Both the position numbers and the translations under genes were made by a program. A stretch of DNA of 62,865 nt, counting the filler. It is 6 parts of 6 records of this genome, joined end to end, with 100 filler letters (N's around TTAATTAATTAA, not from the genome) between each part and the next. Parts side by side here need not be neighbours in the genome. Positions count along the whole stretch, not along the records: positions 1 to 5,986 come from DRR723986_81000; 5 more parts are not named here. One strand, given 5' to 3'. Under the pieces are notes generated by a model that did no database searches, had not been told where the DNA came from, and saw nothing but the letters and a program-made list of their open reading frames with translations. Positions 1 to 56,055 of the stretch are shown piece after piece (position 1 is the stretch's first letter; the number at the start of each line of letters is the position of its first letter).

Positions 1-131
1 TATCCGGCGTTCGCTAATCCCTGACGCAAATGTAGGTCCTAAGCCCCTGCAAAAAGGGGGGGATTACCCTCTGACAACAGAGATGCATTCAGTATTGGGA
101 GGCAAAAGCAACTTGGCCTTCTCACGTCGGG

Positions 132-824
132 TTGCCTAGAATAGCATCGGGAGCGGCACAAATACTCCACGGGTCCATGTTGCCAGAAAAATATTCAGAT
201 CGGGAAGAGTTTTTTGAAGAGGCGTTTCGCGCTCTAGAGATGACATGTGGCGGCCAACCAAATCCGCAACATGTGAGACGACTGCACGAGTATTTATTTA
301 CCCTCTTTTGTTCTAGCTATGAGAGCAGACAAGAAGGCTCACCTTCGACGTTGGCCAAGACCGCGCAAGAACTTCAAAGATATCTCGATAAACTCAACAA
401 TCGCTCCGGCCTATCAGATCATGTTTCTATAAAGAGCTTTCTCGCGCTGAGCGAGACAGCACAGGCCCTTGTAGCTTCCATGATCGCGTTAGAGACACAC
501 CAGCTGATTGATAGTTTTTATGACATCGATTTCAGCAATCAGGCGCATTTTGATGCTCTAAAACATGCGGTGGCCCGCGCCCGAGATCAGATCTCGCGCA
601 ATGTAGGAAGACCAAGCGATGACTGTCTAGATCAGTTCTACTTCAACATCACAACGTTTGCCCACGATGAACTTGGAGCCGATATTAGGGTCCGCAATCA
701 TCACAAAGGCGGTCCCGTGACACCGTTTGAACGGATGATTGTAGCAGGACACCGATTGACCGACATCACAATCAGTTATCATGGCATCGTCAAACGCTAT
801 GCCGCAGCAATGAAGCGCCGATAG
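132..824 (+). CDS. Hypothetical protein in the mobile element (start uncertain; ATG at 177 is an alternative)
   Basis: 230-codon ORF with helical composition, co-oriented with the downstream excisionase/recombinase genes. No family recognised. Confidence 0.6.
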   Translation: MPRIASGAAQILHGSMLPEKYSDREEFFEEAFRALEMTCGGQPNPQHVRRLHEYLFTLFCSSYESRQEGSPSTLAKTAQELQRYLDKLNNRSGLSDHVSIKSFLALSETAQALVASMIALETHQLIDSFYDIDFSNQAHFDALKHAVARARDQISRNVGRPSDDCLDQFYFNITTFAHDELGADIRVRNHHKGGPVTPFERMIVAGHRLTDITISYHGIVKRYAAAMKRR

Positions 825-895
825 GTCTCCATAAGGAAAAGCCGGGGAAATTTCGGGCTTAGATTTTGTCACCTCAAAGATGTCTCCGTCTTTGT

Positions 896-1093
896 ATGAC
901 CAAAGCGTTTCCACATTCTTTGCCCTCCGAGCATCCAGCGCCAGCTAATCTTTCAGCCGGGCTCGCAACGTTGGCCGAGTTGATCGCGCGCCATTGCGCA
1001 AGGGCGGATTTTGCGAACGGAAGGTCCCAACATTCAGATGGAGGATCTGCCGATGAGCAGTTCAAAACCCATCCGCCTGCTCACGATCAGTGA
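896..1093 (+). CDS. Possible small hypothetical protein
   Basis: In-frame ATG at 896. The LAELIARHCARADF helix resembles small proteins I recall upstream of alphaproteobacterial recombinase genes. Overlaps the excisionase start by 41 nt. Confidence 0.35.
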   Translation: MTKAFPHSLPSEHPAPANLSAGLATLAELIARHCARADFANGRSQHSDGGSADEQFKTHPPAHDQ

Positions 1094-1247
1094 GGCGGCG
1101 GAGTATCTCGCTATATCCGAGCGCTCAATCAAGCGCCTCATCGCGCGCGGTGATATGCCCTGCATTCGTGTGGGCTGTGCCTTGCGGTTTGCCTTTGCAG
1201 ACCTTGAGGCCTTCATCGCCCGCAACCGCTCAGGGGGGATGTCCTGA
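1053..1247 (+). CDS. Excisionase-like HTH DNA-binding protein (HTH_17/MerR-like)
   Basis: LLTISEAAEYLAISERSIKRLIARGDMPCIRVG..LRF...DLEAFI matches the Xis-like pattern. GGAGG SD at 1040-1044 precedes ATG 1053. Confidence 0.88.
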   Translation: MSSSKPIRLLTISEAAEYLAISERSIKRLIARGDMPCIRVGCALRFAFADLEAFIARNRSGGMS

Positions 1248-1433
1248 TGACCCTGAATGTCCCCTTAGGGTCTGCTTTGACCCTCGGCCACGCGTTGTCG
1301 TGCAAATCTATATGTTGTTATCATCACTATCATTTGCGGCATATTTGCACTATATATAGCATTTTGCCTCGGGTGGCTTCACGTGGCCCAAACTGTCCTG
1401 CATCTTCCTTCACGTCTTGTTGGAGTAACCGCT

Positions 1434-3230
1434 ATGACTATGCATAACCCGTTCTTTGACGCCAATCAGATGAGCTTGGCTGAGCTGCGCGAACGTATCG
1501 AAGCGGACCATGAGCTATCCGTGTATAAGCGCCGCGATATCGCTTCCGCCTGCCGCAGCTTGGCGGAGTGGTTCCACTTGCCTGAGACCAGCATCCCAGC
1601 CTCTGCGCCTTACATCCGAGAGAAGATTGAGCGTGTGCATCCAACCTTGATCAATGTGACGCAGCGCCGTGTGCAAAATGTGCGGTCTTTGATCTTAAGC
1701 GCGATGCGGCATCTGAAGATCAACACCAAGCTTGCGCCGACCTCAGCAAAGCTCACGGCTGAGTGGCAGGTGCTATATGATCTTCTGAGTGGCGATACAT
1801 ATCGTAAGTCTGAGCTAAGCCGCTTTATGCGCTACTGCTCAAACCAAGGGATCGCACCTAATTCGATCTCTGACGTTGTATCTGACGGCTATCTTGCTGC
1901 ACTAGAGACCGAGAGCCTGATCAAACACCCCCGCGTGCGGCATCAATCGACCTGCCGTGTCTGGAACCAAATGGCGGATAAGCACCGCAGTGTGGGCTGG
2001 CCACAGGTTACACTTAAGGTGCCCCGCTATGAAGACAGGCTCTACGCCATCGACTGGTCTCTCGTCTCTGATTCTGTGAAGGCGGATATCGATGCCTATC
2101 TAGCTCACCTTGCCAGCAAGGATGTCTTCAGCAAGGGTTTGAAGAAGCCCTTTGCGCCAATCAGCATCAATGCCGTGCGGGGGCAGCTGCATCGTTACAT
2201 CTCTGCGCTTTCTCACAAGGGCGTAGATGTAAGCGGCGCTCAGTCCCTCCGCGATCTAGTCACGCCCGCCATGTTTGAGACTGGCATCAACTGGTTTCTG
2301 GAACGCAATGGAGGCGAGACCTCAAAGCATATCGGCGAGCTTGCCTGGAGCGTGCGCTGTTACGCCGTAAAGCACTGTGATCCATCGGATGAAGATGTGG
2401 CCTTCTTTGCAGAGCATATGCCCAAACTGCGTCTCTCCCATGACGGGCTATCCGCGAAGAATGCTGCCTCTATGCATCAATTTGATGATCCAAAGGCCGT
2501 ACTGCGCTTCCTCACGTTGCCTCAAGTGCTCTGGGACAGAGCCCTTTCCATGTCCAAGACAGTTGAGCAAGGCAGTGTACGCAAGGATGCGCATCTCTTG
2601 ATACAAGCCGCCGTAGCCATCGAGATTCTGCAGTTCGCGCCGATGCGGATCCGCAATCTCAATGCTCTGCGCCTCGATCAGCACCTTATCTGGTATGACA
2701 AATGTCTGCGCATTATCGTGCCTGTAGAAGAGGTGAAGAACAAGGTCGCGCTCGACTTCCTCTTGCCAGAGGCCACAACAGAGCGGGTGAAGCGCTATAT
2801 CGATGACTGGCGCATGATGTTCACCCCTGGCGCGAGCCCCTATCTCTTCCCTGGACGCAAGGGGGCTGCAAAGGACTGCTCTGCCTTACGCAAGCTCATC
2901 ACGAACACGCTCTGGTCCCATGCCGCGATCCGTCTAACCCCGCACCAGTTTCGTCATGCAGCGGCCAAGCTCCTGCTAGACCGCCTGCCCGGCCATTATG
3001 AGGTCGTGCGTAAGCTTCTGGGACATAAGGCGCTCACCACCACCTATGCGCATTATGCGGGCGCTGAGACACAAAAGGCGATCGAGCTTTACGGTGAAGT
3101 GATCACAAAGACCCGGCGGGATGGTGTGGTCCAAGCCTTTAAAGAGCATAAACAAAACCCAAAGCGTCATGAGGATCTGTTCATAGATCCGTTGGCTCTT
3201 ATGGGCAAGCCAAAGCGGAGTGCGTCATGA
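1434..3230 (+). CDS. Tyrosine recombinase/integrase, large (~598 aa) with extended N-terminus
   Basis: Catalytic motifs APMRIRNL (R), VKNK (K), PHQFRH (HxxR), LLGH...TTYAHY (H, Y). GGAG SD at 1422-1425 precedes ATG 1434. Confidence 0.9.
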   Translation: MTMHNPFFDANQMSLAELRERIEADHELSVYKRRDIASACRSLAEWFHLPETSIPASAPYIREKIERVHPTLINVTQRRVQNVRSLILSAMRHLKINTKLAPTSAKLTAEWQVLYDLLSGDTYRKSELSRFMRYCSNQGIAPNSISDVVSDGYLAALETESLIKHPRVRHQSTCRVWNQMADKHRSVGWPQVTLKVPRYEDRLYAIDWSLVSDSVKADIDAYLAHLASKDVFSKGLKKPFAPISINAVRGQLHRYISALSHKGVDVSGAQSLRDLVTPAMFETGINWFLERNGGETSKHIGELAWSVRCYAVKHCDPSDEDVAFFAEHMPKLRLSHDGLSAKNAASMHQFDDPKAVLRFLTLPQVLWDRALSMSKTVEQGSVRKDAHLLIQAAVAIEILQFAPMRIRNLNALRLDQHLIWYDKCLRIIVPVEEVKNKVALDFLLPEATTERVKRYIDDWRMMFTPGASPYLFPGRKGAAKDCSALRKLITNTLWSHAAIRLTPHQFRHAAAKLLLDRLPGHYEVVRKLLGHKALTTTYAHYAGAETQKAIELYGEVITKTRRDGVVQAFKEHKQNPKRHEDLFIDPLALMGKPKRSAS

Positions 3231-4357
3231 GCAAGATCGAACGCACCTCCCTGCCTGTTACAGACTGGCCCGAGCAAGACCAAAGGCTCTGGCAATCCGC
3301 CACTGAACCAGGCCGTTACTTCAAAAAGGCAGGCAAAGCTTCTCATTGGTCTGAGGTCACTAAGCTGCAGGTCCAAAAGAGCTATGCCAAATGGCTCTGG
3401 TATCTGCAGAGCTGCGGCCTGCTTGATCCTGCCGCCTTCCCATCTGAGCGCATCTCAGAGCAATATCTGCGCGGATACCTCGCTGAGCTGGACCATCAGG
3501 GTGTGGCCAGTGTAACCATAACCTCGCGCATCACCGATCTGACGGAAGCCATCCGCGTGATGGAGGCAAAGGCTGATCTGACCTTGTTGCGGGATCTCTG
3601 CTCCCGACTGAACGCGCGCGCTGTACCTTCTCGCAAAAAGGCAGAGCGCCTACGAGCCCCCTCAGAGATCTGGGAGGCCGCTGCTGCAGAGATGTGGTCG
3701 ATCAGGTCAGAAGGCACCCTTACCATCCAATCAGCCTCACGCTTCCGCGATGCGATGTCTGTGGCCTTCCTGATCTGGTCGCCCATCCGGCTTAGCAATC
3801 TGCAATCCCTGACCCTAGGTGAGACAATTACCTTCGCAGGCGCCCTCTGGCGCTGCAGCTTTGCTGCACATCAGATGAAGGACAAGACGCCCTTGGACTT
3901 CTATCTTCCACAGGACGAAGAGTATCGCTCGCTCATGCAGCTCTATCTCCGCCGATACAGGCAGAAGCTTCTCCGGCAGCCGGAGTTGCCCATTGGCGCC
4001 CCTCTGCCCTTAAGCGGTCCGCTCTGGATATCCACCCGTGCAGAGGCCATGTCAGGCCAATCCCTTTATTACGGCTGCAAGCGCTGCACCAAGGCCACCC
4101 TTGGCACGGCCATAAACCCGCATCTCTTCCGAGACTGCGCCGCCAGCGCCCTCACAGCCGACAAACCAGAATATGTGCTCGCCGCAGCGCGCATTCTCAA
4201 TCACAACCAGCTCTCGACCACCCTCACCCATTATGAGCATGCCTCCATGATCCAGGCCGCCTCCCGTCTCCATGACGTCATCGGCCAAATCATCGATGAA
4301 GCCGGTGAAGGAGACGATGTGTTCAAGGCTCTCTTCGACAAATGGGGGGATGAGTGA
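3227..4357 (+). CDS. Second tyrosine recombinase (376 aa)
   Basis: SPIRLSNL (R), MKDK (K), PHLFRD (HxxR), ILNH...TTLTHY (H, Y). ATGA overlap with the upstream integrase at 3227-3230. Confidence 0.88.
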   Translation: MSKIERTSLPVTDWPEQDQRLWQSATEPGRYFKKAGKASHWSEVTKLQVQKSYAKWLWYLQSCGLLDPAAFPSERISEQYLRGYLAELDHQGVASVTITSRITDLTEAIRVMEAKADLTLLRDLCSRLNARAVPSRKKAERLRAPSEIWEAAAAEMWSIRSEGTLTIQSASRFRDAMSVAFLIWSPIRLSNLQSLTLGETITFAGALWRCSFAAHQMKDKTPLDFYLPQDEEYRSLMQLYLRRYRQKLLRQPELPIGAPLPLSGPLWISTRAEAMSGQSLYYGCKRCTKATLGTAINPHLFRDCAASALTADKPEYVLAAARILNHNQLSTTLTHYEHASMIQAASRLHDVIGQIIDEAGEGDDVFKALFDKWGDE

Positions 4358-5986
4358 TGCGCGTTGCTGTCTATGCCCGTTTCTCCACTGATATGCAGCG
4401 CGATAAGTCCATCGAAGATCAGGAGCGTGTTTGTTTGCGACTGATCGCGAGCAGGGGATGGTCACATGTCAAAACATTCGCCGATCGCGGACTCTCAGGC
4501 GCCTCCAATACGCGTCCCGGATATCAAGAGCTACTTGGATTTGTCAGAGAAGGCGGCTGTGATGTCGTGGTGGCCGAAAGTATCGATCGTCTTAGTCGAG
4601 ACCAAGAACACATCGCTGGCTTTTATAAAGCGATGGCATTCCAAGGCGTGGTGATTTGCACTGTAGCTGAGGGGGTCATCAACGAACTGCACATTGGCCT
4701 GAAGGGCACAATGTCAGCCTTGTATCTTAAAGACCTCGCACAGAAAACAAAGCGCGGCCTGGAGGGGCGCATTGCAAAAGGCAAAAGTGGCGGTGGTAAT
4801 GCCTATGGTTATTCAGTCGTTCCGGGCGATGAGCGCGGCGACCGAATAATCGATGGAAGCGAAGCACGAATAGTTCGCCGGATTTTCGAAGAGTTCGCCA
4901 ACGGTAAATCACCCAAGCAAATTGCAAGGGACTTAAACCGAGATGGCATAACTGCGCCGAGAACACGTCTGTGGCGTGACAGTGCAATACGGGGCCATGT
5001 TCAGCGTGGAACGGGTATTCTCAACAACGAACTCTACATCGGTCGATTGGTTTGGAACCGCCAGAGGTACATCAAGGACCCAGAGACTGGGAAGCGCGTC
5101 TCACGCCGCAACGCCGAACACGAGATCCAGATCACCGCCGTCCCGCACTTGCGAATTGTAGACGACGAGCTCTGGAGGCGCGTAAAGCAACGCCAGAAGG
5201 AGATTTGGCCCAATCAGAAGCGCTCGCCACAAAAGCAACCAGACTTTTGGCAAACTCGACGTCCCCTCCACATCCTGTCCAATAAGACACACTGCAGTCG
5301 CTGCGGGGGGAGGATGGTGTCCGTGGGGCGCGATTATCTTGCATGTAGCAATGCACGGAAGCTACAGACGTGCAGCCAAAGCAAAGGCATCCGCCGCCCA
5401 GATCTGACGACTAAAGTGGTCGAGCTCCTTAATCATGGATTAATGCGCTCCGAGGCGGTGAGGGCATTCATCAACGCCTATCAACGGGAGTTCAACGAAT
5501 TACAAAAACATCGTTTCGCTGCCACCAATGCGCTCAGGGACAATATTGCCGCAGCGAATAAGAAATTGGATGGGCTGTACGATGCAGTGGCTGATGGAAT
5601 ACGCAGCGAAGGCATAGTGGCGCGGATTAGCGAGCTTGAAGCACGCGTGAAGGAACTCAGAGCCGCCCAAGAACAGCAAGTAGAGCCATCGCCTGTTCTA
5701 ATGCATCCAAACCTTGCAGAGGCGTATCAACGGAAACTCGGTCAACTCACCAGCATGCTGAATGACCCCGCATTCGCGTCAGAAGCCATTCCTTTAATAC
5801 GCGAGTTGATCGACCGAGTTGACCTGCGCCACACTGCTGAGGGATGGGAAGTCGAACTTTACGGCCAGTTGGCAGCATTGTTCAATGTCGCTTTATCAGA
5901 AAGAAAAAAAGCCCACCCTTCGACGGATGAGCCTGGTTTCATTAGTTCGACAAAAGTGGTTGCGGGGGTAGGATTTGAACCTACGA
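4357..5986 (+). CDS. Large serine recombinase (resolvase + recombinase + zinc-ribbon + coiled coil); no stop before contig end
   Basis: MRVAVYARFS catalytic Ser motif, DRLSR, YIGRLVWNR, CSRCGG...YLAC...C zinc ribbon. TGATG overlap with the upstream gene at 4355-4359. Confidence 0.93.
5904..5932 (-). terminator. Rho-independent terminator for the tRNA-fMet, embedded in the recombinase CDS
   Basis: Minus strand reads GCTCATCC-GTCGAA-GGGTGGGC-TTTTTTT: an 8-bp stem with G:U pairs plus U7, 24 nt downstream of the tRNA CCA. Confidence 0.75.
5957..5986 (-). tRNA. 3' part of tRNA-fMet (truncated by contig end); likely att site
   Basis: Reverse complement TCGTAGGTTCAAATCCTACCCCCGCAACCA is a T-arm, acceptor 3' strand and CCA typical of proteobacterial initiator tRNA. 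The anticodon is not visible. Confidence 0.8.
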
Positions 5987-6086
5987 NNNNNNNNNNNNNN
6001 NNNNNNNNNNNNNNNNNNNNNNNNNNNNNNTTAATTAATTAANNNNNNNNNNNNNNNNNNNNNNNNNNNNNNNNNNNNNNNNNNNN
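5987..6086. other. Artificial contig spacer (N-run + TTAATTAATTAA + N-run); also at 12068-12167, 26044-26143, 32549-32648 and 55956-56055
   Basis: The same 100-nt linker, with stops in all six frames, occurs five times. Confidence 0.99.
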
Positions 6087-7333
6087 TTGCCAACAGCACT
6101 TTCAACATGAAGCGTGCTGTCATGCCGTAGTAAGATATGCTTAACAATGGCGAGGCCTAGGCCCGTACCACCCATTTTTCGTGAGCGCGCATTGTCAACA
6201 CGATAAAATCTTTCCGTAAGACGGGCTAAGTGGTCTTCGGCTATTCCCGGTCCTTCATCGCGCACAGATATCTTTACTTTTCCGTCAACTTTGCCTGCAA
6301 CTACATCAAGAAAAACCGTAGTATTTCTGTCGGCGTATTTAGCCGCATTCACAGTAAGATTGATTAATACCTGCATCAATTGGTCGGGGTCAGCAATGGC
6401 ATAGTCCAGTCCAGGTTCTATTTTTGTTACAAAGGACATCCCACGTTCTTTACCAACAGCGGAGGCCGTCAGCACAACGCTACTGATCATCGTAGATAAA
6501 TTTACGTTGTTGTTGGGGGCTTCATGGCGAGACATTTCAATTCGAGAAAGAGAAAGCAAGTCATCTATAAGCCGAACCATCCGTTCAGTCTCTGTTTGCA
6601 TTATGCCTAAGAAGCGCTCCCTGGCAGGGGGGTCATTTTTAGCAGGGCCCTGTAATGTTTCGATGAAACCGATCACAGAGGATAGGGGTGTACGCAGTTC
6701 ATGGCTTGCGTTGGCAACAAAATCCACACGCATTTGCTCTGTTTGCAGCAAGCTGGTAACTTCATAGAAAAAGGCCATTGCCTGGGTGGGTACTTTTTTT
6801 GAACCTGTCCCAGATACGCGGGAGATAGTAACGTCAAAACTGCGTTTTTGTGCGTTTTCATAGCGAATCACGCCAGCGTATTTTTCTCCATCGATGAATA
6901 TTTTTTGTATCGCTTCCACGATTTTGGATTGCCGTAGATATTTATGGACATCATTTCCAGCAATCTCATCACCAATCAGTTCTTTCGCGGCATTATTTGC
7001 AAAAGATATTCTGTGGTCTTCACCAATGATTAGAATTGGCAGAGGAACGGCATGTAGCGTGTTGGCACGCACCGATTTTATGCCGCCACTTCTCCGTGTT
7101 GTGATGATAGATTTCGCTGTATCATTATCTTCATTAGGCAAGCCTGCCGTTTTGTCTAGTGTGTCAATGCCGAGTATCAATATGCTAATCACTGCAAATG
7201 TTACAACCGCGGCGACTATTGTCATCATTCCGATTAGCCAAAAAGAAATGAGAATGATGAAAAGTATAGCGATTATCATTGGCCTGGTTAATAGGCTTTG
7301 CACAGTATATTTGGAAGGGTCAGATAAGGGCAT
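6087..7333 (-). CDS. phoR: Phosphate regulon sensor histidine kinase PhoR-like (C-terminus truncated)
   Basis: N-terminal TM helices, PAS region, DFVANASHELRTPL H-box, NAAKY N-box, DEGPGI, ERFYRVD..RSR..GGTGLGLAIVKH. Confidence 0.88.
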
Positions 7334-7482
7334 TCTATGTACTCGCAAGTAGCGCTGAATGAAGTAAACAATGGGTTATAGCAGTAATACCTAGCAATAT
7401 TACTTCTTGATGACACTTTTTTGTCGCTTGAGATTAAAATTTTATTAGGTAAATCATAACAATATAGCGTATTGTGACTTCG

Positions 7483-7551: not shown

Positions 7552-8322
7552 GTGACTGAAAAACCAATATTACCTGATACATCGGGAAGTGACACCGACG
7601 CTGAGGAAAGTGACTCAACGCGGCGGATAAAGGAACGCCGACATTTGTTAATGCTCGGTGCTGCCGGGCTTCCTATGATGTTGACGCTGAAGGCGTCTGC
7701 CCGTGAAGTGTTGATATCCCAATTAAAATGTACAGTGAAGCTGCCTCGCAGAATGCGAATTTTGGTGGACTGTGATGGCGCTGCGTGGGTTGGTACGCGC
7801 AACATAGAATACAAAAATGGTAAAGGTTTCAAAGTATCTGACATTGCGAAATTCAAGGACAAGGCGTCTTATGTGTTTCCTGCGGGTACTGTGCCTAACA
7901 ACTGGCGCCCAGATGTTTGCCCGATCGAGCAGTGTGGCGATGACGACGACGATGATGATGATTTTGATTATGATTATGCCAGCGCGTCTTCAGAGTTAGA
8001 TGAGCTGATGCGGGCTTCTATGTCAGACCAAGCAGACGGTATTATGCTAGCTGCAGCACGCAAAGGCGATGATGACGACGATGATGATGATTGTGATCCA
8101 GATTGGGTAGATTCTGGCTATGCATTTTACAATATCGACAAAAATACTATTATTACGCCTGCAGACCATGTCAGTGGTAATAGTTTTAGTGTGCAGAATA
8201 ACAACAATGGTTTGTATATCATTCTATCGTTAGCGTATGAGAGCAGTTATGGAAATGCTGCAGGTTGGCCCGGAATTTCATGCATATTCTCTATTTTAAC
8301 CTATTTGCAAACGCAAAGTTGA
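7552..8322 (+). CDS. Tat-signal-like, Cys- and poly-Asp-containing protein; candidate substrate of the downstream RRE/kinase/NTase
   Basis: ERRHLLMLGAAGLPMMLTLKASA (twin Arg, h-region, AxA), six Cys, two G-D8 tracts, C-terminal GWPGISCIFSI. First gene of the operon. Confidence 0.75.
   Translation: MTEKPILPDTSGSDTDAEESDSTRRIKERRHLLMLGAAGLPMMLTLKASAREVLISQLKCTVKLPRRMRILVDCDGAAWVGTRNIEYKNGKGFKVSDIAKFKDKASYVFPAGTVPNNWRPDVCPIEQCGDDDDDDDDFDYDYASASSELDELMRASMSDQADGIMLAAARKGDDDDDDDDCDPDWVDSGYAFYNIDKNTIITPADHVSGNSFSVQNNNNGLYIILSLAYESSYGNAAGWPGISCIFSILTYLQTQS
7936..8097 (+). repeat. Duplicated 33-nt Gly-Asp8-x-Asp coding unit (7936-7968 and 8065-8097)
   Basis: GGCGATGACGACGACGATGATGATGATTTTGAT versus GGCGATGATGACGACGATGATGATGATTGTGAT: 31/33 identical, 129 nt apart. 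Confidence 0.85.
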
Positions 8323-8354
8323 TTTAAAGAACCTGCTATTGGCATACGTCTGAT

Positions 8355-8663
8355 ATGGCCTCAAAATTAAACACAAATGATGTGCGCTGGCTGTCTGACT
8401 CAAGCCAGTATTTAGCCGTGGAATATGATGATACGCATCTGGTGTATTTTAAACCATCAGGCGACACACACTTTTTAAATTTTCTTTCCTATGGAATGGT
8501 TGATGTAGTATCGACCGGGCCTTTGTCCGAGCAGGAAATATTTCAAGCCGTCCTGTCGCGTTTTTCGCTAACAGCTCAGGAACTGCCTGCAAATTTGATA
8601 ACAATTACGCTAGATGAATTGGATCAGGCCGGGTTAGTTGCGAAAGTGAGCCCGGTGGAATGA
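8355..8663 (+). CDS. PqqD-family peptide chaperone / RiPP recognition element (HPr-rel-A system type)
   Basis: 102 aa. EYDDTHLVYFKPSGDTHFLN beta-strands, then helices ending LDELDQAGLV. Directly upstream of an HprK-related kinase with ATGA overlap. Confidence 0.85.
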   Translation: MASKLNTNDVRWLSDSSQYLAVEYDDTHLVYFKPSGDTHFLNFLSYGMVDVVSTGPLSEQEIFQAVLSRFSLTAQELPANLITITLDELDQAGLVAKVSPVE

Positions 8664-9592
8664 CTGAAATAGCCACCCTTGCATCTTATAAAAAATCAGA
8701 CATTCGTTCAGCTCTTCGGCGTGGCACGTTGACGCTGCATCTTGGCCCTTTTGCGCATTTAATTTCTGGCGCAAGCGATGCTTTGCTTGATTTTTTGATG
8801 GACACATACCGGGATTGCCGCTTCGAAATGAATCCATCTGACGTTACGGATGTTCAATTGAGCATAGAAGCCCCTAATATACTGCGTAGATACATACGTC
8901 CGCAGATTATTCCCAATCCAGGATTTGAAGTGCCTGCGCTTCCACTCCCCAAAAGCATGGCTGCGCTGGCCCATGAAATGGGTTTAAACCTCTCGGTGGC
9001 CCTTAAATGCTGCAGGTTTGTTAATATTCATGCAGGTGTTGTTGCGGACGGCGAAGGCGCTATTGTAATGAGCGGGGCATCTGGGGCAGGTAAAAGCACA
9101 CTAACGGCCGCTATGCTCCAATATGGTTATCGTCTTTTGTCTGATGAATTTGCATTGCTTGGTATGGACAAGCCAATGCTGCACCCATACCCGCGCCCAA
9201 TTTCTTTGAAACAACAAACAATCCCTGTCGTCCGTGAAATGGTAGGAGATAGTTGGATAAGCAAAGTTGTTGAGGATACGCCCAAGGGCAACATCGCATA
9301 TTACCGCGCAAAACAATCTGATTTGAAACGTGATCAAGAATCGGCCAAAGCTAAATTAGTTATTTTTCCCAAATTTGAAGAGGGTGTTCGGCCTCACGCG
9401 CACCAATTAAACCCGGCTGAGGCTATTATGCGGCTTGTTCCCGCTTCCACGAATTATTCGTTGTTAGGTGAGCCAGCCTTTCGTGCGATGACCGGTATGC
9501 TTGAGAATACGCGTTCTTATGAAATTTCTTATGGCTCGACAACAGATAGCCTTCGTTTAATGGGGGAAATTACGGGTCAAAAATTTCTATGA
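8660..9592 (+). CDS. HprK-related kinase A
   Basis: IHAGVV, Walker A GASGAGKST, LLSDEF, PYPRPISLK. Lacks the N-terminal DRTGG-type domain of true HprK. Confidence 0.88.
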   Translation: MTEIATLASYKKSDIRSALRRGTLTLHLGPFAHLISGASDALLDFLMDTYRDCRFEMNPSDVTDVQLSIEAPNILRRYIRPQIIPNPGFEVPALPLPKSMAALAHEMGLNLSVALKCCRFVNIHAGVVADGEGAIVMSGASGAGKSTLTAAMLQYGYRLLSDEFALLGMDKPMLHPYPRPISLKQQTIPVVREMVGDSWISKVVEDTPKGNIAYYRAKQSDLKRDQESAKAKLVIFPKFEEGVRPHAHQLNPAEAIMRLVPASTNYSLLGEPAFRAMTGMLENTRSYEISYGSTTDSLRLMGEITGQKFL

Positions 9593-12067: not shown

Positions 12068-12167
12068 NNNNNNNNNNNNNNNNNNNNNNNNNNNNNNNNN
12101 NNNNNNNNNNNTTAATTAATTAANNNNNNNNNNNNNNNNNNNNNNNNNNNNNNNNNNNNNNNNNNNN

Positions 12168-26043: not shown

Positions 26044-26299
26044 NNNNNNNNNNNNNNNNNNNNNNNNNNNNNNNNNNNNNNNNNNNNTTAATTAATTAAN
26101 NNNNNNNNNNNNNNNNNNNNNNNNNNNNNNNNNNNNNNNNNNNATTTGAAAATAGGGTAAAATAGCTAGCTATCTATATTTTGTGTTAGAAGTTGGTAAT
26201 TCTAACAAACCATTTTCTAGAACTATAGAAATGCTTTGATTGCCTAGAAAAGCAAAAACCCCAACTCTCAATATTTCAGATAGTTAGGGTTTTGTGGTG

Positions 26300-32548: not shown

Positions 32549-32650
32549 NNNNNNNNNNNNNNNNNNNNNNNNNNNNNNNNNNNNNNNNNNNNTTAATTAA
32601 TTAANNNNNNNNNNNNNNNNNNNNNNNNNNNNNNNNNNNNNNNNNNNNCT

Positions 32651-55955: not shown

Positions 55956-56055
55956 NNNNNNNNNNNNNNNNNNNNNNNNNNNNNNNNNNNNNNNNNNNNT
56001 TAATTAATTAANNNNNNNNNNNNNNNNNNNNNNNNNNNNNNNNNNNNNNNNNNNN

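Follow-up and report, generated by a model that had tools for sequence, protein, structure and literature searches.

The first 5,986 nucleotides of the stretch of DNA analysed here (the window, 62,865 nucleotides) carry, on one strand, a gene for a small excisionase-like (Xis) protein with a helix-turn-helix (HTH) motif, followed by the genes of two tyrosine recombinases, TyrA and TyrB (the Tyr pair), and of a large serine recombinase (LSR). From a comparison with genome and metagenome loci it is proposed, with somewhat better than an even chance of being right, that the LSR is the tRNA integrase of a genomic island, and that a separate unit of the Tn554/SE kind, formed by the HTH protein and the Tyr pair, has been fused to it and acts on sites of its own. 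The initial annotation had placed two tyrosine recombinases and an LSR behind an excisionase-type gene at positions 1053-5986; these genes and coordinates hold, as do the ATGA overlap between the TyrA stop and the TyrB start (3227-3230) and the TGATG overlap between the TyrB stop and the LSR start (4355-4359). The features of this region are as follows.

1053-1247, plus strand: Xis-like HTH_17 protein of 64 amino acids (PF12728, 1.6e-13; TIGR01764 'excise', 1.1e-12)
1298-1413, no strand assigned: conserved non-coding element, AT-rich, about 115 bp, between Xis and TyrA
1434-3230, plus strand, from an ATG: TyrA, large tyrosine recombinase of 598 amino acids (PF00589, 5e-13)
3227-4357, plus strand: TyrB, ordinary-size tyrosine recombinase of 376 amino acids (PF00589, 1.6e-6; 28.4 bits against a cut-off of 27.1)
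4357 (ATG; or GTG 4354) to 5986, plus strand: LSR with Resolvase, Recombinase and Zn_ribbon_recom domains, open at the contig end
5957-5986, minus strand: 3' terminal 30 nt of a tRNA-Met(CAT) gene of the initiator type, antisense to the LSR 3' end

The HTH protein scores above the curated cut-offs of both of its families (51.2 bits against 27 for HTH_17, and 48 bits against 28.8 for TIGR01764), and a spacer of 186 bp separates its gene from that of TyrA. The LSR shows the domains PF00239 (6.5e-26), PF07508 (3.9e-23) and PF13408 (1.4e-6), with the catalytic serine at residue 10 from ATG 4357. It had been described as intact; in fact its frame is still open at 5986, where the contig ends, and by homology it lacks about four codons and its stop. 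The closest relative (L137) is 87% identical over window positions 981-5985 and unrelated upstream, and the homology of a second locus (L150) starts at 983. Because homology begins at these positions, the conserved module, as the alignments delimit it, is about 5 kb long and extends from within a small open reading frame (ORF) at the Xis start to the core of the attachment (att) site.

The evidence for the role of the LSR comes from a survey of 401 genomes of the family of G402, which holds a Roseovarius metagenome-assembled genome (MAG) contig. The LSR family is present in 62 of these genomes, at 76 places, and TyrA relatives in 22, at 27 places; loci were fetched for 20 of the 27 TyrA places and for 40 LSR places, chosen mainly for matches reaching the C-terminus, which gave 52 LSR loci in all, 12 of them entered through TyrA. 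Of the first 12 LSR loci, 10 have a tRNA-Met(CAT) gene that overlaps the 3' end of the LSR from the other strand. In these loci the tRNA-Ile and tRNA-Ala of the spacer of a ribosomal RNA (rrn) operon lie about 3.4 kb past the tRNA-Met(CAT), which is thus the tRNA that closes the rRNA operon; its sequence has the C1-A72 mismatch typical of initiator tRNAs (tRNA-fMet). The tRNA 3' motif adjoins the LSR in 34 of 40 further loci, where contigs often break. A terminus of the form ...VAGxGFEPxTFRL, directly followed by the stop, was found in 44 of 53 LSR relatives, and this tail corresponds to the tRNA stretch between the CCA end and the anticodon loop, read antisense. The last ~14 LSR codons lie antisense in the tRNA-fMet gene (e.g., L030 13825-13901) and are host-encoded past a core of 12 bp. 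The window LSR ends at ...GFEPT because the contig ends there, and ARAGORN did not call the tRNA in the window because only 30 nt of it are present.

The 12-bp core, at 5957-5968 of the window, is common to the attL and attR of related islands. In three complete or long contigs attL was found 61.5, 35.2 and 46.6 kb from attR, each time as a terminator-like host flank followed by the same 12-nt core and an unrelated arm, and the related islands measure 35-62 kb. The identity between attL and attR in these three islands amounts to 12-21 bp, and therefore the behaviour is that of a serine integrase; the tRNA-fMet 3' duplication that had been put forward as the delimiter of the elements does exist as a shared sequence, but is no longer than this. 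Six LSRs have non-tRNA junctions, at which divergence sets in directly after GGTTGCGGGRG; in L114, L115 and L118 the sequence after the core forms an inverted repeat with it, like an intact attP, and the LSR copies in the attP state (L114, L115, L117, L118 and L090) have other tails. On comparison, then, the LSR is shown to join two sites, an attP overlapping the 3' end of the LSR gene and the 3' end of the tRNA-fMet gene, which have only the 12-bp core TGGTTGCGGGRG in common, and integration replaces the last ~10 LSR codons and the stop with the host tRNA gene read antisense. On comparative evidence the enzyme combines a resolvase domain carrying the serine, recombinase and zinc-ribbon domains, a gene-adjacent attP and a short att core, all of them features of the LSR family.

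No Tyr pair is present in 34 of the 52 fetched LSR loci, so the LSR alone accounts for the targeting of tRNA-fMet. Upstream of the LSR these LSR-only loci have genes for an FtsH-like AAA protease, relaxases, a T4 coupling protein, TRAP transporters, a phenol hydroxylase and SIR2/HerA; no recognisable gene for a recombination directionality factor (RDF) was seen near the LSRs in the upstream regions of the LSR loci. Relatives of the same length occur on chromids and plasmids of Paracoccus, Ketogulonicigenium, Bradyrhizobium, Ensifer, Sphingobium and others. The earlier suggestion that the LSR handles tRNA integration is borne out by the tRNA-antisense ends, by the loci that lack a Tyr pair and by the LSR-less Tyr pairs, which are not at tRNA-fMet (see below), and the LSR is most likely the island integrase at the rrn-linked tRNA-fMet.

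Some further observations concern the same site. In L045, L104 and L119, in G641:C2 (1-18758) and in G761:C1 (~1251190), another element lies between the LSR island and an intact tRNA-fMet; since the break is at the anticodon loop, which would fit a tyrosine integrase, the tRNA-fMet site appears to collect tandem elements of both chemistries. In G761:C1 a segment of 2.8 kb is present twice with 99.96% identity, at two rrn loci (3288906-3290549 and 1251190-1252833; L036 and L081), and comprises the final 57 bp of TyrA, then TyrB, the LSR and the 3' half (46 nt) of the tRNA. In G592 (L124, L136) a 264-bp copy of the LSR 3' end is found at the left end of the 35-kb island, followed by the core and an attP-type arm; this copy may be the remnant of an earlier tandem or an unrecombined attP. 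In 11 LSR-only loci (L095-L104, L117, L118) a familyless protein of ~330 residues and an AAA/Peptidase_M41 (FtsH-like) protein of ~750 residues precede the LSR, and this pair looks like an alternative module in the place that the Tyr pair holds in the islands with all three recombinases (trio islands).

The HTH protein, TyrA and TyrB have a distribution of their own. Every one of the 20 genome loci obtained with TyrA as query has TyrB directly downstream of TyrA, the trees of the two proteins contain the same sister pairs, and an HTH homologue is found upstream of TyrA in 22 of 23 loci, including those without an LSR. No HTH with E < 1e-3 was detected in the 34 LSR-only loci up to 9 kb upstream of the LSR, the one weak match there having an E value of 0.0032 at 7.5 kb upstream. 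The HTH protein belongs to the Tyr pair, and its description as the excisionase of the LSR or of the whole trio had to be abandoned. Tyr pairs without an LSR make up 6 of the 20 genome loci, and none of the six is at tRNA-fMet. On plasmids TyrA has relatives in 15 records (E up to 1e-8), all of them alphaproteobacterial (Roseomonas, Azospirillum, Pukyongiella, Microvirga); one Pukyongiella plasmid, of 41 kb, carries in succession a hypothetical gene, HTH, TyrA, TyrB, parA, a partition gene and rep. In L038 the order is tRNA-Phe, Phage_integrase, further genes, HTH, TyrA, TyrB and cargo, and in L183 and L185, two metagenome loci of the window's TyrA clade, it is rpoD, tRNA(CAT), Phage_integrase (354 amino acids), HTH, TyrA, TyrB and cargo. 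From these layouts it follows that the Tyr unit tends to adjoin whatever primary integrase an island has. L034 and L035 have in common a block of 4.06 kb, Hyp-HTH-TyrA-TyrB ('Hyp' being a hypothetical protein), with 74% identity in otherwise unrelated surroundings; the boundaries of the block are gene ends, and no recognisable end motifs were seen at them, there being no empty site for comparison.

Both tyrosine recombinases were said to keep a full catalytic set, and the sets are indeed present in the window proteins and conserved across their relatives: R, K, H, R and Y in 22 of 22 TyrA relatives, with His-II in 20 of the 22, and R, K, H, R, H and Y in all 23 TyrB relatives. The invariant tyrosine of TyrA is the second Y of YAHYA, Y541 of the 598-residue protein. 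The motif P-x-R-x-x-N-L, which had been pointed out as common to the two enzymes, occurs in both window proteins and its N is kept throughout the TyrA relatives (22/22); as a family trait it fails for TyrB, where N is found in 8 of 23. TyrA aligns with XerD, XerC-like chains and an archaeal Xer protein, and its layout consists of an extra N-terminal helical region (residues ~1-230), a core-binding domain and a catalytic domain. Its AlphaFold model, with a predicted local distance difference test (pLDDT) score of 86, matches XerH, Cre, Tn1549 Int and lambda Int, and the ~230 extra N-terminal residues gave no match among solved structures. The TyrB model (pLDDT 87) is Cre/XerH-like over its whole length, that is, a plain two-domain recombinase, and a PDB sequence search with this protein gave no match. 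ESM Atlas returned 'site-specific integrase' clusters only, and the NCBIfam Xer models stay far under their cut-off (42 against 335 bits). By alignments and models, both proteins have the catalytic R-K-H-R-H/W-Y set and the core-binding/catalytic fold of PF00589. Gene order, trees and catalytic residues together show HTH, TyrA and TyrB to be, on this comparative level, a separable, co-evolving, catalytically complete and portable recombination unit. Because both recombinases are catalytically complete and co-evolve, a heteromeric enzyme is suggested, which would act on sites carried along with the unit.

The union of this unit with an LSR is a recurrent one. A scan of metagenomes with a TyrA alignment found 561 relatives; 63 distinct loci (51-92% identity) were retained. 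The TyrB stop is on the contig in 36 of the 63, the contig ending earlier in the other 27, and two of the 36 could not be judged for an LSR. In the 34 decidable loci of the window's TyrA clade an LSR follows TyrB in 29, at -4 to +2 nt in 28 and after a gap of 776 nt in the remaining one; the other five have no LSR within at least 400 bp (L183, L185 and three with truncated TyrB matches). The LSRs of the 29 metagenome trios are 39-86% identical to that of the window. Of 19 genome loci, 14 have the LSR at -7 to +17 nt from TyrB and two have it at 132-150 nt; two loci have cargo between the genes, at 3.3 kb (L049) and 8 kb (L085), and in L090 the spacing is -4 nt and the TyrA/TyrB region is disrupted. 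On a homologue search, which the initial annotation had advised, the three-gene order recurs with tight spacing in 29 metagenome and ~18 genome loci, far beyond chance.

The same figures bear on the possibility that the Tyr pair is an independent transposon which by chance sits ahead of an ordinary LSR, with no functional link between them. Such a passenger would mostly occur without the LSR and would have terminal repeats of its own; what was found is an LSR in 29 of the 34 loci and no terminal repeats. Window positions 1-5986 contain repeat pairs at chance level only, and when four whole islands were compared with themselves nothing touched the module except the att core and the 264-bp LSR copy of G592. 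A passenger would agree with the conflicting trees described next, with the occurrence of the modules apart from each other, and with the cargo that parts TyrB from the LSR in L049, L085 and L168 (0.8 kb in the last case). It is nevertheless quite improbable, since an LSR is retained across enzymes of such varied identity (39-86%), overlapping or touching TyrB in 28 loci, and the genes are too close together for a transposon end to fit between them.

The two parts of the module have travelled separately. The Tyr pairs of the window and of L030 are sisters (60% and 53% identity), and the window LSR falls in another clade, with ~50% identity to L082, L036 and L039 and 38% to L030. Approximately unbiased (AU) tests reject the 'c2-LSR' rows as a group in the TyrA tree (p 4e-6), and in the LSR tree they reject as groups both the window with L030 (p 3e-127) and L039 with L041 (p 6e-50). 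L039 and L041 have DNA in common from HTH through the first ~860 bp of the LSR, after which they diverge; this divergence suggests that the DNA-binding half was swapped by crossovers in the conserved 5' part of the LSR, and the adjoining rrn operon would provide long homology for such exchanges. As judged from the trees, it is shown that the Tyr and LSR modules have different histories, and the spacing data likewise show, at this level, a fusion into one operon that has been kept by selection. In the lineage of the window the Tyr unit and the LSR would form one translationally coupled operon.

A further property of the unit is the conserved element before TyrA, with which HTH, TyrA and TyrB would form a second, self-contained unit. 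The Xis-TyrA spacer is the best-conserved part of the module. In 54 distinct sequences, with TyrA identity down to 51%, the element at 1298-1413 has 42 invariant and 21 nearly invariant columns. Its inverted arms, 13 bp long and separated by ~30 bp, co-vary at two positions; it also contains direct CTATATGT repeats, repeats of TTCAC/TGTC and one sigma-70-like match at 1295-1324. L183 and L185, which lack an LSR, have the element too, and genome G545 has a single copy of it: a genome-wide search there for a second copy gave 3-mismatch matches only, at or below the level of a reversed-pattern control. An RNA element was considered and rejected, given a consensus fold of just -2.9 kcal/mol and no Rfam match. 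The element is a candidate for either a tightly controlled promoter/operator or the recombination site of the Tyr pair.

If it is the latter, the Tyr pair could serve for the Xer-like resolution of multimers or cointegrates, a function of plasmid origin for which the element would be the single site, kept for a circular or plasmid phase. A conserved single-copy site adjoining the genes, a pair of catalytic recombinases that co-evolve like XerC/XerD, plasmid copies that adjoin par and rep genes, and folds closest to XerH, XerA and Cre all fit this proposal. We regard it as unlikely: the inverted arms are ~30 bp apart, as opposed to 6-8 bp in a core site, the islands examined have no replication genes, and a resolvase would have no evident need for a 230-residue N-terminal extension or for coupling to an integrase.

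Our best guess for the role of the Tyr pair is recombination at sites of its own. It could move or join the module or the island between replicons, by site-specific movement in the manner of Tn554/SE elements or, alternatively, by formation and resolution of cointegrates with plasmids that bear a cognate unit. That the Tyr pair does not work at the LSR att arms is indicated by the fact that the same clade serves different primary att sites. This point also bears on a scheme in which the Tyr pair and the HTH protein excise or copy out a circle of the island, as in SE elements and Tn554, and the unidirectional LSR integrates the circle into tRNA-fMet, the Tyr pair standing in for the directionality factor of the LSR. 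One operon with coupling in 28 of 29 loci despite LSR swapping, and LSRs with no recognisable RDF gene nearby, are in line with this scheme; 12-21 bp of attL/attR identity would suffice as the overlap region of a tyrosine recombinase, and SE elements are described as circularising with an IntA/IntB pair in the accessible part of PMC10214605. Its probability is nonetheless low, since the same TyrA clade, at ~52% identity to the window, serves the L183 and L185 islands, which have another tRNA and a classical integrase, and in the wider TyrA family also plasmids, so that it cannot be tuned to the LSR att arms; 34 of the 52 fetched LSR islands do without a Tyr pair, and neither joints nor circular forms were seen in contigs. 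A two-chemistry engine, in which the HTH-steered Tyr pair produces circular copies of the island or docks it onto plasmids with a cognate unit, and the co-translated LSR then locks the circle irreversibly into tRNA-fMet, is likewise doubtful.

Several points weigh against recombination at separate sites by a Tn554/SE-like unit. No recombination site of the Tyr pair came to light: terminal repeats and a second copy of the element were not found, and the conserved element may be only a promoter/operator. The tight coupling, kept through exchanges of the LSR, argues for a functional link with the LSR that a model of own sites does not need. The groups of the AU tests were named after the trees had been seen, and the fetched LSR set is enriched for trios by its 12 loci obtained via TyrA. 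Contigs from an RNA library give at most a weak hint of expression of the operon. The kinship of the Tyr pair with Tn554/SE elements is suggested by architecture only; the order here (small HTH, large, ordinary, then LSR) and the alphaproteobacterial hosts differ from Tn554, and TyrA has no Firmicute or Actinobacterial plasmid match at E up to 1e-8.

With regard to the islands themselves, window positions 981-5986 would form the tRNA-proximal end of a non-conjugative genomic island, as its recombination module of ~5 kb. The two whole trio islands (61.5 and 35.2 kb) carry sugar ABC and TRAP transporters, protocatechuate-pathway genes, oxidoreductases and regulators, and none of the 81 ORFs scanned in them belongs to a conjugation, replication or phage family. 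Near the module other islands have defence-like genes (helicase/PLD, DUF3427, WYL, RelA/SpoT-like and Cas9). The Cas9-like gene, at L045 11799-15038, encodes 1079 amino acids with HNH_4, RuvC_III and the Cas9 alpha-helical lobe, and lies ~3 kb upstream of HTH-TyrA-TyrB-LSR. The high variability of the cargo by the module, and the sharp start of inter-island homology at window 981-983, might be taken as signs of an integron- or shufflon-like platform that captures cargo or inverts DNA beside the module; a role in capture has been put forward for GInt integrases, according to the available portion of bioRxiv 10.1101/2024.06.12.598671. We consider such a platform very improbable, because no inverted or direct repeats flank the neighbouring genes, and because the variable cargo is upstream of HTH in the LSR islands but downstream of TyrB in the tRNA-Phe and tRNA(CAT) islands.

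DNA nearly identical to the module, with half or more of the sampled words, is present in 16 seawater or marine metagenome runs from 11 studies. Logan contigs of three DNA runs and one RNA run, the only form in which these runs were searched, showed no joints or circular forms; over the last 186 bases contigs of many organisms pile up because of the tRNA. RNA-library contigs of one run span parts of all genes and both junctions, and DNA carry-over is possible.

Three further features surround or overlap the module.

132-824, plus strand: orf230, a hypothetical and variable member, 230 amino acids, with no Pfam or NCBIfam match
896-1093, plus strand: small ORF of 65 amino acids that overlaps the Xis start, its 3' half conserved in a codon-like pattern
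5987-6086, no strand: artificial contig joiner without biology, N44-TTAATTAATTAA-N44, a six-frame stop linker

Of the 40 metagenome loci whose sequence extends 900 nt or more upstream of Xis, 21 have a homologue of orf230 (23-41% identity) in the same place, and orf230 is missing from the closest relative, L137. Its identification with the 'Hyp' protein upstream of HTH in one TyrA subclade was rejected, the Hyp profile giving E = 10. For the small ORF, an alignment of 40 distinct upstream regions shows that a stretch of the form ...L.ALARLLGRQAA.E... is kept with variation at third positions; it has no Pfam family and may be a real gene, possibly the fifth of the module.

The window as a whole consists of six contigs joined end to end by such linkers (5987-6086, 12068-12167, 26044-26143, 32549-32648 and 55956-56055), and the module is on the first piece, 1-5986. 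The G+C content of this piece is 54%, that of the other five 36-46%, and the pieces may not all be DNA of one organism. In the family of the nearest genome, G001, neither TyrA nor the LSR family was found in any of 401 genomes, and in G001 itself the region of the module is absent. A scan of genome contigs with the single TyrA protein gave one match only, of 19 residues. A Roseovarius MAG contig is 87% identical to window 177-1489, and TyrA and the LSR family are common in its family. Because of the G+C offset and of the distribution of TyrA and the LSR, missing from the family of G001 and common in the one that contains Roseovarius, the first contig is either mis-binned or a very recent import. 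No tRNA match was found in G001 or G402, a result that is uninformative for MAGs. On the second piece, from translation only, there are an ORF for a PhoR-like histidine kinase at 6035-7348 (minus strand), clipped by the linker, and, at 7552-9592 (plus strand), an Asp-rich, secreted-looking protein, an ORF of ~100 amino acids and a P-loop ORF.

Beyond the window, the islands form a widespread marine (roseobacter-type) family whose target site is universal, multi-copy and flanked by kilobases of conserved DNA. LSRs are prized as one-way integrases, and how natural LSR islands exit from the chromosome is often obscure; a sizeable subset of LSR islands has a Tn554/SE-style Tyr pair in the same operon, and the system could reveal whether the two recombination chemistries work together on an element or simply share it. 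It would offer a new LSR/attB pair with a conserved tRNA sequence as attB. The tRNA-encoded tail of the LSR would be an unusual case of a host gene that completes a gene of a mobile element, and a C-terminus rewritten by the tRNA could mark the integrated state. Elements with one large and one ordinary Tyr recombinase, which are poorly understood, would be extended to Alphaproteobacteria. If the two-chemistry engine were true, it would represent a new class of integrative element, with the Tyr enzymes for excision or transfer and the Ser enzyme for integration, and the first Tn554/SE-type system described in Alphaproteobacteria.

Among known systems, the initial annotation found none that the gene set matched. 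This view is incomplete, as one large and one ordinary catalytic Tyr recombinase together with a small auxiliary protein are given as the hallmark of Tn554/SE elements in the accessible text of PMC10214605. As far as the available portions of PMC3414803 and PMC10214605 go, Tn554 and the actinobacterial Tn554-like elements have adjacent catalytic Tyr recombinases, one ordinary and one of ~600 amino acids or longer, with a small third protein, and need no terminal repeats; here catalytic Tyr recombinases of 376 and 598 amino acids are side by side. The TnpC of Tn554, in what these sources offer, is not reported as HTH_17. Elements of the Tn554 type have a TnpC-like protein downstream, in contrast with the upstream position of the small protein here, and insert site-specifically with a 6-bp footprint. 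SE and GInt elements resemble the module in having, at one end of a non-mobilizable island with variable cargo, an operon of several Tyr recombinases and a small auxiliary protein (PMC10214605; bioRxiv 10.1101/2024.06.12.598671; both as partly available). They differ in carrying a catalytically dead fold protein (Tfp or GinC, in the same partial sources), whereas here there are two Tyr genes, both with full catalytic sets, and no further recombinase-fold ORF was found between TyrA and TyrB; moreover, the third recombinase is here a serine enzyme with its own tRNA site. Published searches for the Tfp/Srap and GinC/GinD markers found none in Alphaproteobacteria, at least in the accessible part of PMC10214605.

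RIT elements, which in the partial sources at hand are common in Alphaproteobacteria, likewise have three adjacent and overlapping recombinase genes, all three for tyrosine recombinases, and terminal inverted repeats, but here the third gene is an LSR, TyrA has 598 amino acids and inverted termini were not found. XerC/XerD and XerH are comparable as co-evolving catalytic Tyr pairs and as the best structural matches, and differ from the present pair, which is borne by a mobile element and has an extra N-terminal region in TyrA. In LSRs of the phiRv1 type a small HTH protein of the Xis kind can steer the serine integrase; this is unlike the HTH protein described here, which follows the Tyr pair (22/23) and is missing from 34 LSR-only loci. 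A published parallel to the LSR is the Paracoccus aminophilus prophage vB_PamS_Pami6 (phiPam-6), for which the available parts of PMC6536676 and PMC3925955 give a serine recombinase and a predicted site in tRNA-Met(CAT). Both are serine recombinases of Rhodobacterales elements at tRNA-Met, Pami6 being, in those parts, a phage with a single integrase; it is not among the matches of the LSR in the phage collection. In the literature searched, with subscription journals and supplements outside its scope, no Tyr-Tyr-Ser operon was found, nor an LSR/tRNA-fMet island family beyond Paracoccus phage Pami6. Taken with these systems, an LSR island integrase joined to a Tn554/SE-style pair is rated as a new combination of known kinds.

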